DNA of 6,540 nt. It comes from a virus (taxonomy: Duplodnaviria > Heunggongvirae > Uroviricota > Caudoviricetes). The position numbers were made by a program, and so were the translations under genes. Below are positions 143 to 6,195 of this stretch, piece by piece (position 1 is the stretch's first letter; each line of letters starts with the position of its first letter). The stretch is taken from the IMG/VR virus record IMGVR_UViG_2698536307_000009. One strand, given 5' to 3'. The notes beneath the pieces were generated by a model. It saw only the letters and a list, made by a program, of their open reading frames with translations. It had not been told where the DNA came from and did no database searches.

Positions 143-718
143 CTACGGCAGTGCTGGCCATTCAATATCCGGTGCAGTTGATGTATCAACACGGTTCAGC
201 AACACCCGATACTTTTTCCAGGCTTCCAGCAACAAGGTTTCTTCCTCCGTTGCGATCTCCAGATCCACAGCATCCTGAAGCGGCGCTATATGCTCACTGG
301 CTATCTGCATCAGGCTGTTTTTTGTTTCTTCCGCCTCCCGGATCCGGAACAGTTTTTCTGCTTCCGTATCCTTCACCCAGGCTGTGCCGTTCCACTTCTG
401 ATATTCCCCTCCCGGCGATAACCAGGTAACATTTTCCGGTAACGGACCGAGTTCAGAAATAAATAACGCGTCGCCGGAAGCCACGTCATAAACCGTTTTA
501 CCCCGATGATCTTCAACGAGATGCCACGATGCCTCATCACTGTTGAAAACAGCCACGAAGCCTGCCGGAATATCTGGCGGTGCAATATCGGTACTGTTTG
601 CTGGCAGACCTGTATGAGGCGGAATATATGCGTCACCTTCACCAATAAATTCATTAGTTCCGGCCAGCAGATTATAAATTTTTATGGTCCGTGGTTGTTC
701 ACTCATTCTGAATGCCAT
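143..718 (-). CDS. tfaQ: Tail fiber assembly protein (lambda Tfa family), 191 aa
   Basis: 191-aa ORF; translation [35 protein letters not shown]...DIEWPALP matches lambda Tfa and the K-12 TfaQ/TfaR paralogs as I recall them. Start overlaps the upstream stf stop (TAATG). Symbol assigned from Qin-like gene context. Confidence 0.9.
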
Positions 719-1026
719 TACGCAAGCCTCACAATATAGTTAAATGCGATGTTTTTGACGGTGTTTTCCGCGTTACCAGCAGCGTTAACGGTGATGGTAT
801 GTCCATGTGAACCAATCGCAACGGAGTGCGTATGAGCACCAATACCGACAGTATGTGCGTGTGCACCTGCGCTTGCAGCAGTACCCGATACAGAGTGCGT
901 ATGAGCGCCTGCAGAAGAAGTGTTAACACTGTATTTAGAATAATCAGGTGATCCACTTCCCGGAGCACCACTGGAACCACCTGAAACAAATGTCATCGAA
1001 TGGGTATGTGCACCGGCTGTCCCCAT
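718..1026 (-). pseudogene. Side tail fiber (Stf) C-terminal fragment, remnant lacking its N-terminus
   Basis: 102-aa ORF with GAHTHS/HxH repeats typical of the distal receptor-binding tip of lambda Stf-like fibers. Begins at an internal ATG directly at the junction with J-derived DNA; translationally coupled to tfa. Confidence 0.7.
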
Positions 1027-2360
1027 GCATTTACCGCCCGGACTGTCAGCCTGTAATTTCCCAGCGCCAGCTGCGTGAAGCGATATGTGGTTTCCGTCGT
1101 CCGGGCCGTGCTGACCAACCGCTCACTGCCGTCGTCCGCTGCCACGGTCAGGCGAAGCATAAAGCTCACCCCCTTCACCACCTTCGGCGTGTCCCAGCGC
1201 GCCAGCACCTGGTATTCCCCGCTGTCTGCGGTGACTTCTGCGGTCAGGTGCTGAACTGCTGGCGGCGTGACACCATTCACCGTGCCGCTCTGGTCACCGT
1301 CAAAGTGCGCCCCGTTATCCACGATGGCTTCTTTCTCCGGTACATGCTGCACGGCAGTGATGGCATACGTACCGTCATCGTTCTCACGGATACTCACACA
1401 GCGGAACAGGCGCTGACGCAGCGTCGGCAGCTTCAGCCCCCACACGCTGTACTCGGCAACGCCGTCAGGAACCCGGCTCACTTTCACCTTCACGCCGTCG
1501 GTGACGGACTGGACCTCCACGCTCACCGGATTACCCTGCCCGTCAACCAGGCTTATCAGCGTGGTGCCGGAGGATGGCAGCGTGATTTCACGGTCGAGCG
1601 TCAGTGTCCGCGTCTGGCTGTTCACCGCCAGCACGCGCCCGCCGATGCTGATCCCCGCATAGTCATCATCACAGATTTCAATGACATCACCTGGTACATG
1701 GCGAAGCCCTTCGGCACCCACGCTGAAGTCCACGGTCTGCGTTTCCAGCAGTTCCGTTTTAATCAGCCACAGCCCGGCTCGGTGCGCCTGCCCCCGCCTG
1801 GTACAGCCAAAGGCATCCATCTTCGTGACGTTACGACCGTAACGGGCAATGGCCTGCGTGTCCTCCACAAGCTCTGTCGCCGTCTCCCAGCCGTTATCCG
1901 GGTCAATCCAGTTCACCTCAACGGCATTATGGCGGTCCTTCAGGGCGCTGAAGCTGTAGCGGAACGGCGCGCCATCATCCGGCATCACCACATTACTGCG
2001 GTTATAGGTCCACACCTTATCTGATGGTCGGTCCTGCACGAACGTCAGCGTCTGCCCGTTCCATACCGGCATACAGCGCATCGCCGAGCAGAAATCACTG
2101 AGAACATCCCACGCCTTACGCTGTGTGGTCAGCCAGGCATTACAGGTGATGCGCGGCTCCGTGCCGCCAAAACCGTCCGGCACCGACTGGTCGCAACACT
2201 GGCCGATGACATACAGCGCCCATTTATCCACATCTGCCGCACCAAGACGTTTACCCATGCCGTAGCGCGGGTGGCTGGAGATCTGTCTCGCTGGCCTGCC
2301 GCAGTTCTTCAACTTCCCGGCGCAGCTTTTCGTTCTCAATTTCAGCATCCCTTTCGGCAT
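993..2360 (-). pseudogene. Internal fragment of lambda J-like host specificity (tail tip) protein; J homology roughly 1017..2271
   Basis: 455-aa ORF; from YGMGKRLGAADVDKWALYVIGQ to [14 protein letters not shown] it matches the central part of lambda J (about residues 330-770 of 1132 from memory). The first ~28 codons are Nu1 DNA read out of frame; the last 7 codons (PVHIPIR) are stf DNA read out of frame. Confidence 0.85.
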
Positions 2361-2508
2361 ACCATTTTATGACGGCGGCAGAATCATAAAGCACCTCATT
2401 ACCCTTGCCACCGCCTCGCAGAACGGGCATTCCCTGTTCCTGCCAGTTCTGAATGGTACGGATACTCGCACCGAAAATGTCAGCCAGCTGCTTTTTGTTG
2501 ACTTCCAT
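2251..2508 (-). pseudogene. Terminase small subunit Nu1 homolog, N-terminal fragment (85 aa, winged-HTH DNA-binding domain retained)
   Basis: MEVNKKQLADIFGASIRTIQNWQEQGMPVLRGGGKGNEVLYDSAAVIKWYAERDAEIENEKLRREVEELRQASE matches lambda Nu1 residues 1-~77; after DLQP it diverges (PALRHG-stop) where J-derived DNA is fused, near plus 2271/2272. Native start codon and upstream cosB are intact. Confidence 0.85.
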
Positions 2509-2519
2509 TGTTCATTCCA

Positions 2520-2730
2520 CGGACAAAAACAGAGAAAGGAAACGACAAAGGCCAAAAAGCCCGCTTTCAGCACCTGTCGTTTCCTTTCTTTTCAGGGGGT
2601 ATTTTAAATAAAAACATTAAGTTACGACGAAGAAGAACGGAAACACCTTAAACCGGAAAATTTTCATAAATAGCGAAAACCCGCGAGGTCGCCGCCCCGT
2701 AACCTGTCGGATCACCGGAAAGGACCCGTA
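2520..2730. other. Lambda-type cohesive end site: cosB (2520-2685, with Nu1-binding R-like elements), cosN (2686-2697), cosQ side (2698-~2730)
   Basis: Plus 2686-2697 AGGTCGCCGCCC is the reverse complement of the lambda 12-nt cohesive end GGGCGGCGACCT. Flanks match the lambda left end (CGCGGGTTTTCGCTATTTATGAAAATTTTCCGG...) and right end (...CGACAGGTTACG) as recalled. Elements with the GTTTCC core are visible between cosN and the Nu1 start. Confidence 0.85.
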
Positions 2731-2896
2731 AAGTGATAATGATTATCATCTACATATCACAACGTGCGTGGAGGCCATCAAACCACGTCAAATAATCAAT
2801 TATGACGCAGGTATCGTATTAATTGATCTGCATCAACTTAACGTAAAAACAACTTCAGACAATACAAATCAGCGACACTGAATACGGGGCAACCTC

Positions 2897-3130
2897 ATGT
2901 CAACGAAGAACAGAACCCGCAGAACAACAACCCGCAACATCCGCTTTCCTAACCAAATGATTGAACAAATTAACATCGCTCTTGAGCAAAAAGGGTCCGG
3001 GAATTTCTCAGCCTGGGTCATTGAAGCCTGCCGCCGGAGACTGTGCTCAGAAAAAAGAGTTTCTTCTGAAGCAAACAAAGAAAAGAGTGACATTACTGAA
3101 TTGCTCAGAAAACAGGTCAGACCAGATTGA
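2897..3130 (+). CDS. ynfO: Small basic protein YnfO-like (77 aa), predicted ribbon-helix-helix (Arc/MetJ-like) DNA-binding fold
   Basis: ATG-initiated 77-aa ORF in lambda right-end-like DNA. Basic N-terminus (KNRTRRTTTR), then a strand-helix-helix pattern (NIRFP / NQMIEQINIALEQKG / NFSAWVIEACRRRL). Position and size fit K-12 Qin ynfO; the fold is inferred from the pattern only. Confidence 0.65.
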   Translation: MSTKNRTRRTTTRNIRFPNQMIEQINIALEQKGSGNFSAWVIEACRRRLCSEKRVSSEANKEKSDITELLRKQVRPD

Positions 3131-3187
3131 AGCAATTTAGATAATCGTGCAGACTACGCCCCCTCATATCACATGGAAGGTTTATCT

Positions 3188-3598
3188 ATGGATCAGGTAG
3201 TCATTTTTAAACAAATATTTGATAAAGTTCGAAACGATTTAAACTATCAATGGTTTTATTCTGAGCTAAAACGTCACAATGTCTCACATTACATTTACTA
3301 TTTAGCCACAGAGAATGTTCATATTGTATTAAAAAATGATAATACAGTGTTATTAAAGGGCCTAAAAAACATTGTGTCTGTCAAATTTTCAAAGGATAGG
3401 CATCTTATAGAAACGACCTCTAATAAGCTGAAATCCAGAGAGATCACATTTCAGGAATACAGAAGAAACCTTGCTAAAGCAGGAGTTTTTCGGTGGGTTA
3501 CAAATATCCACGAACAAAAAAGATATTACTATACCTTTGATAATTCATTACTATTTACTGAAAGCATCCAGAAAACTACACAGATCTTACCACGCTAA
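3188..3598 (+). CDS. ydfO: YdfO/YbcV family protein (DUF1398), 136 aa
   Basis: [34 protein letters not shown]...QILPR. Start placed at ATG 3188, which has a GGAAGG Shine-Dalgarno 7 nt upstream (3175-3180); the in-frame ATG at 3173 has none. Confidence 0.85.
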
Positions 3599-3606
3599 AC
3601 CATAAC

Positions 3607-3635
3607 GTCCGGCTTCTCTCACTCCTGAGCCGGAC
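3607..3635 (+). terminator. Hairpin 9 nt after the ydfO stop (possible terminator, weak U-tract)
   Basis: Perfect 8-bp inverted repeat GTCCGGCT...AGCCGGAC with a 13-nt loop, followed by TGCATTGGTTTAAT. Confidence 0.3.
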
Positions 3636-3700
3636 TGCATTGGTTTAATAAAAACCATCAACAATTGTGATTTAGATATTCGGAACCATTCAAATATAAC

Positions 3701-3723
3701 AAAACCCCGTAAAAACGAGGTTT
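3701..3723 (-). terminator. Possible bidirectional terminator between convergent ydfO and gnsB
   Basis: Minus strand AAACCUCG-UUUUUA-CGGGGUUU: stem with one G-U wobble, flanked by A and U runs, about 30 nt after the gnsB stop. Confidence 0.25.
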
Positions 3724-3749
3724 ATGGATAAATTTTATTATTGAATACA

Positions 3750-3923
3750 TCAGATTAAATTAATCTTGACATCATAGCTTTCAAGACCCGTCATTTTTTC
3801 CCGTGCGGTAAACTGAATACTGGTAACTTCTTTCCCGGTCTTTTTCTTAAGTTCAATAATTTTTTTTGTTATATATTCAGAAATATCTGCTTCTGCTTTT
3901 GTTTTTAAGTTTTCAATATTCAT
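3750..3923 (-). CDS. gnsB: GnsB (GnsA/GnsB family small protein, 57 aa)
   Basis: Not in the supplied ORF track (below its size cutoff). Minus-strand translation is MNIENLKTKAEADISEYITKKIIELKKKTGKEVTSIQFTAREKMTGLESYDVKINLI. AAGAGGAA Shine-Dalgarno immediately upstream. Family and symbol from recalled GnsA/GnsB sequence and Qin gene order. Confidence 0.8.
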   Translation of the reverse strand: MNIENLKTKAEADISEYITKKIIELKKKTGKEVTSIQFTAREKMTGLESYDVKINLI

Positions 3924-3965
3924 CATTTCCTCTTTTAGTCTGTTATGACTTTCCAGTTACACAGT

Positions 3966-4094: not shown

Positions 4095-4250
4095 TCAACT
4101 CAAGAGCCTTATTGCTGCTTCCAGAATTTCTTCTGAAGTAACATGTCGATCCGCGGCTACATAAATGACTTTATGATCTCCGGTCAGAGATGGAAACCCT
4201 GCGGCCATTACAGTAAGGTGTGTTTTTTCGCCATTTGGATATTCACGCAT
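4095..4250 (-). CDS. ynfN: YnfN-like small protein (51 aa if started at MREYPNGEK; alternative in-frame ATG at 4325 gives 76 aa)
   Basis: Open frame ending at 4095; the track's start at 4367 is TTG. The ATG at 4250 has GGAG 11 nt upstream and gives the 51-aa length I recall for K-12 YnfN. The minus-strand terminator at 4370-4389 leaves little room for a promoter ahead of the upstream starts. Confidence 0.5.
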   Translation of the reverse strand: MREYPNGEKTHLTVMAAGFPSLTGDHKVIYVAADRHVTSEEILEAAIRLLS

Positions 4251-4369
4251 GATGGTGTTAACTCCAGTCATCGCTGGCACTACCACTGCTGGTTCAGAGT
4301 TAAAAAAAACTATGATTTTTTTCATGATGTTACCGTAGTATGTGAGTATCCATCGAATAGACACCAAGC

Positions 4370-4389: not shown

Positions 4390-4596
4390 CTTCATTTTCA
4401 CTTTTTTAAATCCAACGACAGACGGCTGGCATTTAAGTATTGTGAAATATTATCAAATGTAATCATCATTGATTTACAAAAGATACATTTTGCCCCGAAA
4501 GGATTCATGTCAGAAACATCAAAAGATGATGTTCTATACTGGGAACCATGACAACACGGGCATCTAAAGTGAATATGGTTTGTAATATTGTCTACC

Positions 4597-4809
4597 TCAA
4601 AGCGCCACTACATGAACAGCGGCAGGACCTTTAGGTCCGTTCTCAATACCAAATTCAACTTCCTGATTCTCAGTTAATGTTTTGAAATCGTTGCTCTGAA
4701 TTGCTGAGAAATGGACAAACACATCTTTGCTGCCATCTTTCGGCGTGATGAAACCAAAACCTTTTTCAGGGTTAAACCATTTCACTAAACCAGTCATTTT
4801 GTTAGACAT
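4597..4809 (-). CDS. cspI: Cold shock protein, CspA family (70 aa), CspI-like
   Basis: [70 protein letters not shown] carries the RNP1 (KGFGFI) and RNP2 (VFVHF) motifs. Shine-Dalgarno AAAGGTAATAATT-ATG resembles cspA. Neighbours fit K-12 Qin cspI. Confidence 0.93.
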
Positions 4810-4989
4810 AATTATTACCTTTTGAAGAAATTAGCCCTTGGGCAGAATGGTCCGAAAAAAAATATCAGAGAGAAAAACCAACAAGGAAATCTCAAGAGGT
4901 ACAAATAATAAAATTATAACAATGACTGCTTCAGATAAATTTGTAACAAACCAGAACACCATTAACGCATGATTAACCACCCATAGCAA
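4810..4989 (-). promoter_or_regulatory. cspI promoter and long 5' leader with cold-box-like element
   Basis: Minus strand: -35 TTGCTA (plus 4989-4984), 17-bp spacer, -10 GTTAAT (plus 4966-4961), resembling cspA TTGCAT/CTTAAT. Predicted leader about 145 nt; GGTTTGTTACAAAT near its 5' end resembles the cspA cold box. Confidence 0.45.

Positions 4990-5171: not shown

Positions 5172-6195
<1,024 letters not shown>

Follow-up and report, generated by a model that had tools for sequence, protein, structure and literature searches.

A Qin-like prophage ynfO–ydfO pair: a conserved cos-proximal gene for a putative ribbon-helix-helix protein beside an independently distributed DUF1398 gene

We analyzed a 6,540-nucleotide (nt) stretch of the IMG/VR caudoviricete record IMGVR_UViG_2698536307_000009, referred to below as the window and forming the right arm of an Escherichia coli lambdoid prophage that is defective and Qin-like. 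Our focus is on 2 neighboring genes, ynfO and ydfO, both located on the plus strand between the cohesive-end site (cos) and the lysis genes and oriented antisense to the late operon, as is bor. The first-pass annotation had described a basic 77-amino acid (aa) protein with a ribbon-helix-helix (RHH)-like pattern, followed 57 nt later on the same strand by a 136-aa DUF1398 protein, in the accessory slot of lambdoid phages, and had likened the pair to antitoxin–toxin or regulator–effector modules. The layout was confirmed in every detail (the spacer is exactly 57 nt), and the slot proved collinear with the right end of phage lambda. The module reading was not supported by the comparison: ynfO and ydfO are not a unit and are distributed and recombine independently of each other.

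Both genes are already catalogued members of known families, and the names proposed for them were upheld by Pfam, by RefSeq, which labels the 2 open reading frames (ORFs) in E. coli genomes as ynfO (YlcI/YnfO family) and ydfO (DUF1398), with gnsB adjacent, and by the Protein Data Bank (PDB). YnfO is assigned to Pfam PF13132 (DUF3950; E-value of 2.7e-21, 75.6 bits versus a cut-off of 25), NCBIfam YlcI_YnfO_N (NF041551; 36.6 bits versus a cut-off of 30), and PHROG 949 (phrog_949; E-value of 6.3e-34). YdfO matches Pfam DUF1398 above the curated cut-off (E-value of 1.5e-46), a family that includes YdfO, YbcV, and YcgX, and is identical, save for 1 residue, to the protein in the nuclear magnetic resonance (NMR) structure PDB 2HH8, the fold of which it shares; translation could also begin at the ATG at 3173, giving the longer, 141-aa version used in the PDB construct. 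When compared with relatives at moderate divergence, ynfO and ydfO display ratios of nonsynonymous to synonymous substitution rates (dN/dS) of ~0.2 to 0.3, a sign of purifying selection, and are thus genuine genes rather than chance ORFs. The segment spanning positions 2600 to 3750 was matched by megablast in 4838 of the 5426 complete E. coli genomes.

The independence of the 2 genes is evident from their distribution. In the phage collection, DUF3950 was found in 152 records versus 43 for DUF1398: a Stx2 phage carries DUF3950 without DUF1398, divergent from genes for an HNH-like endonuclease (annotated as “Dnase”) and the small terminase, and in the lambda-like 2G7b the DUF3950 gene is followed directly by bor. 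A first scan of IMG/VR with the DUF3950 alignment recovered near-identical YnfO copies only, and 2 more scans used divergent members of the family. Among the resulting 240 DUF3950-centered loci, DUF1398 lay within 400 nt in 98 and was lacking within 2.5 kb in 129 (that is, in 129 of the 227 loci on viral contigs with enough downstream sequence), with 13 being too short, but the counts include many near-identical prophage copies that are not independent, and attest that separation is common rather than giving its frequency. The genes are thus often found apart, an outcome that the first-pass annotation had named among those that would refute a module. None of the 72 satellite-type DUF3950 loci contained DUF1398, and none of the about three dozen DUF1398 loci with ≤49% identity to YdfO, which come from Escherichia (ycgX-type), Shigella, Citrobacter, Klebsiella, Kluyvera, Pseudocitrobacter, and Salmonella, contained DUF3950 within 4 kb; no conserved small upstream partner was present in the 18 distant DUF1398 loci examined for neighbors. 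Finally, the 77-aa YnfO (94% to 100% identical) has 2 kinds of DUF1398 allele next to it, one 96% to 100% and the other only ~75% identical to YdfO, which indicates a recombination joint at the spacer.

The relationship to lambda clarifies how this part of the window is built. BLAST aligned positions 2698 to 3059 with lambda 48502 to 48141 at 98.3% identity, placing the mature right end of the phage at window base 2698 and the ynfO start codon 199 nt inside it. The right end of lambda encodes an unannotated 64-aa ylcI-like ORF (48109 to 48303, minus strand), lambdap79 (plus strand), lambdap78 (DUF1398, minus strand), and bor (minus strand); the conserved YlcI/YnfO-family ORF is missing from the annotation of the RefSeq record NC_001416. 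Residues 1 to 49 of YnfO are identical to the product of this ORF and lambdap78 is 79% identical to YdfO, so that lambda itself carries the pair, and the DLP12 prophage has the equivalent set ylcI-ybcW-ybcV. With respect to cos and the lysis genes, the pair has the same position and strand in lambda as in the window, but lambda has 613 bp, including lambdap79/ybcW, where the window has its own 54 nt, which give YnfO a longer, different tail (77 aa versus 64 aa in lambda) and leave the genes 57 nt apart. Downstream of the pair, the window carries gnsB, ynfN, and cspI, whereas lambda carries bor. In lambda and DLP12, the opposite-strand lambdap79/ybcW separates the DUF3950 and DUF1398 genes, with a PdhR site in the divergent ybcV–ybcW spacer, and the 2 genes therefore cannot form one simple operon there.

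The gene that the window lacks has a reported role in phage–host conflict. According to a 2026 preprint, lambdap79 is expressed during lambda-vir infection and triggers the Vulcan NADase defence, which lambda-vir evades by losing lambdap79 through recombination with Qin, thereby acquiring the arrangement seen in the window (bioRxiv 10.64898/2026.09.04.749371); the Qin arrangement of the window is the Vulcan escape allele. In the literature, lambdap79 was scored as “essential” by CRISPR interference (CRISPRi) although it is deletable. The labels attached to lambdap78, namely “head protein” (RefSeq lambda, PHROG 413) and “putative envelope protein” (GenBank), are unsupported, and we rejected both because the gene lies on the anti-late strand, is dispensable, and has ordinary chromosomal homologs.

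Lambda homology resumes 74 nt before the ydfO start codon, implying that this upstream segment travels with ydfO, and the guanine–cytosine (GC) content drops from ~0.43–0.45 in ynfO to 0.28–0.35 in ydfO across positions 3100 to 3200. The segment contains a PdhR-box-like palindrome and a candidate −10 hexamer. A PdhR site identified by genomic systematic evolution of ligands by exponential enrichment (SELEX) is listed between ynfO and ydfO, and at the paralogous site in the ybcV–ybcW spacer, deletion of pdhR lowered both mRNAs ~10-fold (PMC7660256). The GC-rich hairpin downstream of ydfO had a z-score of −3.2 in an RNA fold of positions 3590 to 3740; it escaped the terminator scan because it is not followed by a canonical U-run and is likely to be the 3′ end of the transcript or a stabilizer. 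Published expression data report a 116-fold induction of ydfO by an ionic liquid, a change in ydfO expression upon DicC overexpression, and an increase of more than 1000-fold in ybcV and ybcW under overexpression of T4 MotB, a condition that the title of the paper ties to altered H-NS-dependent repression. In K-12, sequencing of transposon insertion sites (TraDIS) recovered few Tn5 insertions in ydfO, as in many AT-rich horizontally acquired genes (iraM, safA, ygeF/G/N; PMC5821084), a pattern that hints at shielding of the DNA by H-NS rather than at essentiality. According to the literature, the ASKA clone overexpressing ybcV is viable and emerged from a screen for changes in glycogen accumulation, and CRISPRi knockdown of lambdap78 left lambda plaquing unaffected. 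A report of oxidative-stress resistance upon YdfO overexpression (PMC4077768) was not used, being a probable mix-up with YfdO of prophage CPS-53: its presumed source, Wang et al. 2010 (PMC3105296), reports YfdK, YfdO, and YfdS and does not mention ydfO.

In these respects, ydfO has the character of a moron, combining a distinct GC content with presence/absence polymorphism at a fixed inter-module slot, which in related phages is occupied by DUF1398, by p79, DUF1398, and bor together, by bor alone, or by nothing. Like the lysogenic-conversion genes bor and lom, it is small, autonomous, encoded on the anti-late strand, lower in GC content than its surroundings, and dispensable for lytic growth; it differs from morons of the bor/lom type in that its promoter, like any host phenotype conferred by DUF1398, is putative.

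The ynfO/ylcI gene is a recurrent feature of lambdoid genomes. The N-terminal segment of ynfO/ylcI occurs at 9861 places in 4184 complete E. coli genomes, with up to 12 per genome, and DUF3950 is end-proximal in phages with 2 packaging modules, the Nu1-type and the HNH-type. Its occurrences extend to a satellite-like element of 16.5 kb and to capsid-forming phage-inducible chromosomal islands (cf-PICIs). In the integrase/AlpA/primase-type satellites from IMG/VR, 3 lineage-specific GGTGT-N6-CAC repeats lie ~260 nt upstream of the DUF3950 gene, around a GTCAAG...TATACT promoter-like stretch, and a conserved 62-aa basic ORF (PHROG 21027) lies ~240 nt downstream on the same strand; the DUF3950 gene and this ORF may represent a different 2-gene cassette. 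Alignment of 49 diverse DUF3950 proteins revealed a conserved core from I15 to L49, flanked by a variable N-terminal arm and a C-terminal tail that varies with genomic context. R16, F17, and P18 are invariant, and conservation reaches 90% or more at I15, I25, N36, F37, S38, W40, V41, A44, C45, and L49.

YnfO likely, although unproven, adopts the RHH fold. In the AlphaFold2 monomer model, an extended N-terminus is followed by a helix at residues 19 to 32, a loop of 4 residues, and a second helix from residue 37 onward, which is the RHH order of elements, the RHH strand being able to form in the dimer only; the conserved IRFP and G..NFS motifs also fit the RHH pattern. The PDB neighbors of the model found by Foldseek were nearly all RHH proteins, including ParD, StnY, MazE-mt1, Arc, MatP, MazE9, and KacA, and further NikA, NikR, CopA(SO), HicB, and CdbA. 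YnfO resembles the RHH repressors (P22 Arc, Mnt, CopG, and the N-terminal domain of NikR) in its small size, its basic N-terminal arm, and its succession of a strand-like segment (IRFP in YnfO, LRWP in Arc), a helix, a G-x-x-N/S turn, and a second helix, and Arc, NikR, CopA, and MatP are among its nearest structural neighbors; it differs from them in that no sequence or structure score is significant, and its dimerization, strand pairing, and DNA binding are putative. With the RHH antitoxins (ParD, RelB-like, MazE-mt1, and KacA), it shares an RHH-like N-terminal domain followed by a variable C-terminal tail, as well as a larger gene next on the same strand; unlike in antitoxin loci, ydfO is not a conserved partner, has no toxin fold, and is widely found alone. 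In a Pfam search of the 49 aligned DUF3950 proteins at an E-value of 10, the matches were weak and scattered, with 3 proteins matching HicB-like antitoxins at 0.036 or worse, and they were not relied on.

The YdfO fold consists of 2 tandem helix–helix–three-strand units and is unique, with no toxin-like or enzyme-like structural neighbor and no significant match in BFVD. The positions conserved across the family (L27, Y35, T41, N43, an L-A-x-A-G-V motif, W103, R112, and Y114) include no invariant residue of catalytic type, the conserved residues being hydrophobic, glycine, or aromatic. DUF1398 is a small family, with 200 representatives at an E-value of ≤0.001 in an exhaustive phmmer search, many of them fragments; full-length lambdoid members are present in 3011 complete E. 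coli genomes, fewer than the 4184 with the ynfO/ylcI N-terminal segment and in line with separate distributions, and in species-representative genomes the family is limited to the Enterobacteriaceae once lambda contamination is set aside. Apparent DUF1398 genes in unrelated taxa, among them Pseudomonas, Bacillus-like organisms, and Flavobacterium, consist of the 79%-identical lambda sequence and were discarded as lambda control-DNA contamination rather than a real distribution. The lambda right-end segment was also encountered, at lambda-like identity, in assemblies of Kitasatospora, Brevibacillus, and Candidatus Nanosynbacter, with many contigs of ~3.5 kb, and its occurrence in unrelated taxa almost certainly reflects leftover lambda control or spike-in DNA.

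The sequence between the mature right end and ynfO is distinctive in its own right (Table 1). Next to the reverse complement of GGGTCCT, which we take to be lambda cosQ, lies a perfect palindrome, TGATAATGATTATCA, presumably identical to the 7-1-7 consensus of the Fur box and located 36 nt inside the right end of lambda. It has 1 match in the window versus 0.01 expected by chance and was found in 141 of the 315 fetched loci. In the representative of the commonest, cos-type upstream group, the palindrome is kept with the center base alone altered (G to A), whereas the representatives of the HNH-type and satellite-type upstream groups showed no evident copy.

Table 1. Features of the window and of the corresponding region of lambda (positions refer to the window unless stated otherwise).
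Feature	Position	Strand	Description
ynfO	2897..3130	+	77 aa, isoelectric point (pI) 10.6, stop TGA, GC 0.45; YlcI/YnfO family (DUF3950)
Conserved YnfO core, residues 15-50	2939..3046	+	IRFP strand-like segment, helix A, G-S-G-N loop, helix B; putative RHH domain for DNA binding
54-nt segment without lambda counterpart	3060..3113	+	encodes most of the Qin-specific YnfO C-terminal tail
ydfO	3188..3598	+	136 aa, pI 9.75, stop TAA, GC 0.32; DUF1398
Shine-Dalgarno sequence GGAAGG	3175..3180	+	7 nt before the ydfO ATG at 3188 (RefSeq start)
DUF1398 cassette common to lambda	3114..3617	+	74 nt upstream, coding region, and 19 nt downstream; lambda 47527-47023, 84.4% identity
PdhR-box-like palindrome AACAGGTCAGACCAGAT	3111..3127	.	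in the last ynfO codons
Candidate -10 hexamer GATAAT	3140..3145	+	putative ydfO promoter, read from the sequence
9-bp GC-rich hairpin GUCCGGCUU...GAGCCGGAC	3607..3635	+	starts 9 nt past the ydfO stop
cosN cohesive-end sequence AGGTCGCCGCCC	2686..2697	.	reverse complement of the lambda left-end overhang
AGGACCC	2721..2727	.	reverse complement of GGGTCCT, read from the sequence
Perfect 7-1-7 palindrome TGATAATGATTATCA	2734..2748	.	beside candidate cosQ, 149 nt upstream of the ynfO ATG
Truncated Nu1	2251-2508	-	Pfam Phage_Nu1
Nu1 fragment and adjoining tail tip protein J fragment	993-2508	-	J fragment of 455 aa (Phage-tail_3 and Ig_J)
gnsB	3750-3926	-	Pfam “GnsA/GnsB toxin” family, E-value 3.3e-35; convergent with ydfO
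ynfN	4095-4367	-	next after gnsB
cspA thermoregulator element	4570-4955	-	Rfam, gathering score; upstream of cspI
ORF nested within the DUF2514-family ORF (rzpQ)	5222-5494		
Rfam family IS009 match	177-375	-	gathering score; within the region of the tail-fibre assembly gene
lambdap79 (absent from the window)	lambda 47738-47944	+	no Pfam family; PHROG 657

To the left of the pair, the window carries the Nu1 fragment, the J-like tail fragment, and the tail-fibre assembly gene. The Nu1 frame ends after 85 codons and covers only positions 1 to 81 of the 164 of the Pfam model; its truncation and junction with the J fragment mark a prophage copy without head genes and most tail genes, and a K-12-like record has the full, 189-aa nohA in place of this fragment. 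To the right, all on the minus strand, are gnsB, ynfN, cspI, the DUF2514-family ORF (RefSeq rzpQ), and the lysozyme gene. For any element of toxin–antitoxin type in this stretch, gnsB–ynfN is a likelier place than ynfO–ydfO; PADLOC, run on the products of ynfO, ydfO, gnsB, and ynfN, returned no match to a defence model.

The explanation that we favor, and consider reasonably probable, is that the product of ynfO, a gene with a fixed place next to cos, is a small regulator that binds DNA and that ydfO is an independent, exchangeable cargo gene. The ynfO–ydfO segment would accordingly be the Qin counterpart of lambda's right-end accessory region, read opposite to late transcription. YnfO/YlcI would most likely dimerize through residues of about 13 to 50, forming an RHH domain for DNA binding to which a variable C-terminal tail is attached, and most likely acts by sequence-specific DNA binding in transcriptional control in the lysogen, with ynfO/ylcI being a conserved gene that lambdoid phages carry immediately inside their packaging end and that also occurs in satellites. 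The ydfO gene would be an AT-rich moron traveling with its own 74-nt upstream segment and the PdhR box therein, probably silenced by H-NS and turned on by stress or metabolic signals, and YdfO would be a basic, non-enzymatic alpha/beta protein with its own fold, presumably binding a host macromolecule.

Several observations weigh against this explanation, in addition to the redundancy of the IMG/VR counts. The YnfO monomer model contains no strand and has a mean predicted local distance difference test (pLDDT) score of 71 (73 to 84 in the core); all Foldseek E-values for YnfO exceed 1, the best being 1.3; hmmsearch of the PDB sequences, using a profile built on the DUF3950 alignment, gave 0 matches even at an E-value of 10; and hhalign, although placing IRFP opposite LRWP of Arc in the expected register, did so with a probability of only 3.9%. 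The predicted topology and the RHH-dominated list of neighbors fit the RHH-like pattern described for YnfO, none of the matches being statistically significant. Upstream regions of the Nu1-type and HNH-type DUF3950 genes share no recognizable operator, their common 6- to 8-mers not rising above shuffled controls. A consensus promoter scan of positions 2500 to 3800 yielded zero sites, leaving the promoters of both ynfO and ydfO putative, and the probable silencing of ydfO by H-NS is deduced from the paralog data and base composition. The terminator scan found no site between ynfO and ydfO, and in the Qin arrangement the 2 genes may well be co-transcribed, in which case YnfO could influence ydfO expression.

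Taken further, the last point leads to the proposal that, in Qin-type prophages only, the genes form a regulator–effector operon, in which a promoter between cos and ynfO would serve both and YnfO, as an RHH repressor, would set the level of the transcript and of YdfO without any toxin–antitoxin relation. RHH proteins are typically autoregulators, and the shared strand, the short gap free of terminator-like sites, and the hairpin after ydfO only would all suit such an operon. DUF1398 lies directly downstream in 79 of the 80 loci with the 77-aa YnfO type, but the DNA of these loci is near-identical, and the linkage does not count as independent evidence. Considering that one YnfO is joined to 2 DUF1398 alleles 25% apart, that the window has kept the lambda-type upstream segment of DUF1398, that in lambda and DLP12 an opposite-strand gene intervenes and DUF1398 is served by a divergent control region of its own, which includes a PdhR site, and that no conserved operator emerged among the DUF3950 upstream contexts, we regard the operon as unlikely. 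The proposal of a type II toxin–antitoxin or abortive-infection pair, with YnfO as an RHH antitoxin whose C-terminal tail neutralizes the toxin YdfO, is extremely improbable and largely refuted by the distribution of the genes. It draws on the classic layout of a small RHH gene preceding a larger gene, on the ParD chains and MazE antitoxins that top the Foldseek list, albeit none significantly, on the context-dependent C-terminal tail of DUF3950 proteins, and on the scarcity of transposon insertions in ydfO, which appears in a TraDIS list also holding antitoxin genes. However, the insertions are lacking in the putative “toxin” gene and not in the “antitoxin” gene, opposite to the prediction for such a pair; the genes are often apart in both directions and their sequences do not co-vary, so that co-inheritance, co-variation, and a toxin fold of the downstream protein, by which type II systems are recognized, are all lacking. 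Moreover, the YdfO fold is neither toxin-like nor enzyme-like and has no conserved catalytic residue, PADLOC was empty, DUF1398 genes standing alone on chromosomes lack a conserved small partner, and DUF1398 proteins have been overexpressed alone without reported lethality (YdfO for NMR and ybcV from the ASKA collection).

Another possibility concerns the timing of DNA entry. Lambda DNA exits the capsid with its right end foremost, which would make the leftward unit of ylcI/ynfO and cargo the first DNA available for transcription, and these genes could serve counter-defence or takeover, acting from 200 nt inside the right end on host defences or physiology during infection. The proximity of the ynfO start codon to the mature end, the end-proximal location of DUF3950 with both types of packaging module, and the expression of the neighboring lambdap79 in lambda-vir infection at a level sufficient to trigger Vulcan (bioRxiv 10.64898/2026.09.04.749371) are compatible with such a role. 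It is nevertheless very unlikely, given that the genes are antisense to the late operon, like bor, which is known to be expressed in the lysogen, that knockdown of lambdap78 has no effect on plaquing, that neither YnfO nor YdfO resembles a known anti-defence protein, and that DUF1398 genes commonly occur on chromosomes as ordinary genes. A bolder synthesis, which we consider quite unlikely, would cast YlcI/YnfO as a dedicated RHH regulator, kept by lambdoid phages and satellites at the first-entering end, that controls the leftward anti-late unit (lambdap79, DUF1398, bor, or other cargo), to which the palindrome might add an iron input, with DUF1398 as the regulated effector acting in the lysogen or early infection on a host stress-signaling partner.

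The locus matters little as a discovery: both genes already carry annotations as members of known families, the YdfO structure has been available since 2006, and lambda itself contains the pair. It provides a useful negative in that the toxin–antitoxin look of a small RHH gene followed by a larger gene is misleading here. Of possible interest for bench work are the perfect, presumably Fur-type palindrome conserved beside candidate cosQ, and the unannotated, conserved gene of putative DNA-binding type located 200 nt from the right end of lambda. The DUF1398 genes, for their part, are among the most widespread uncharacterized and apparently H-NS-silenced accessory genes of E. coli.

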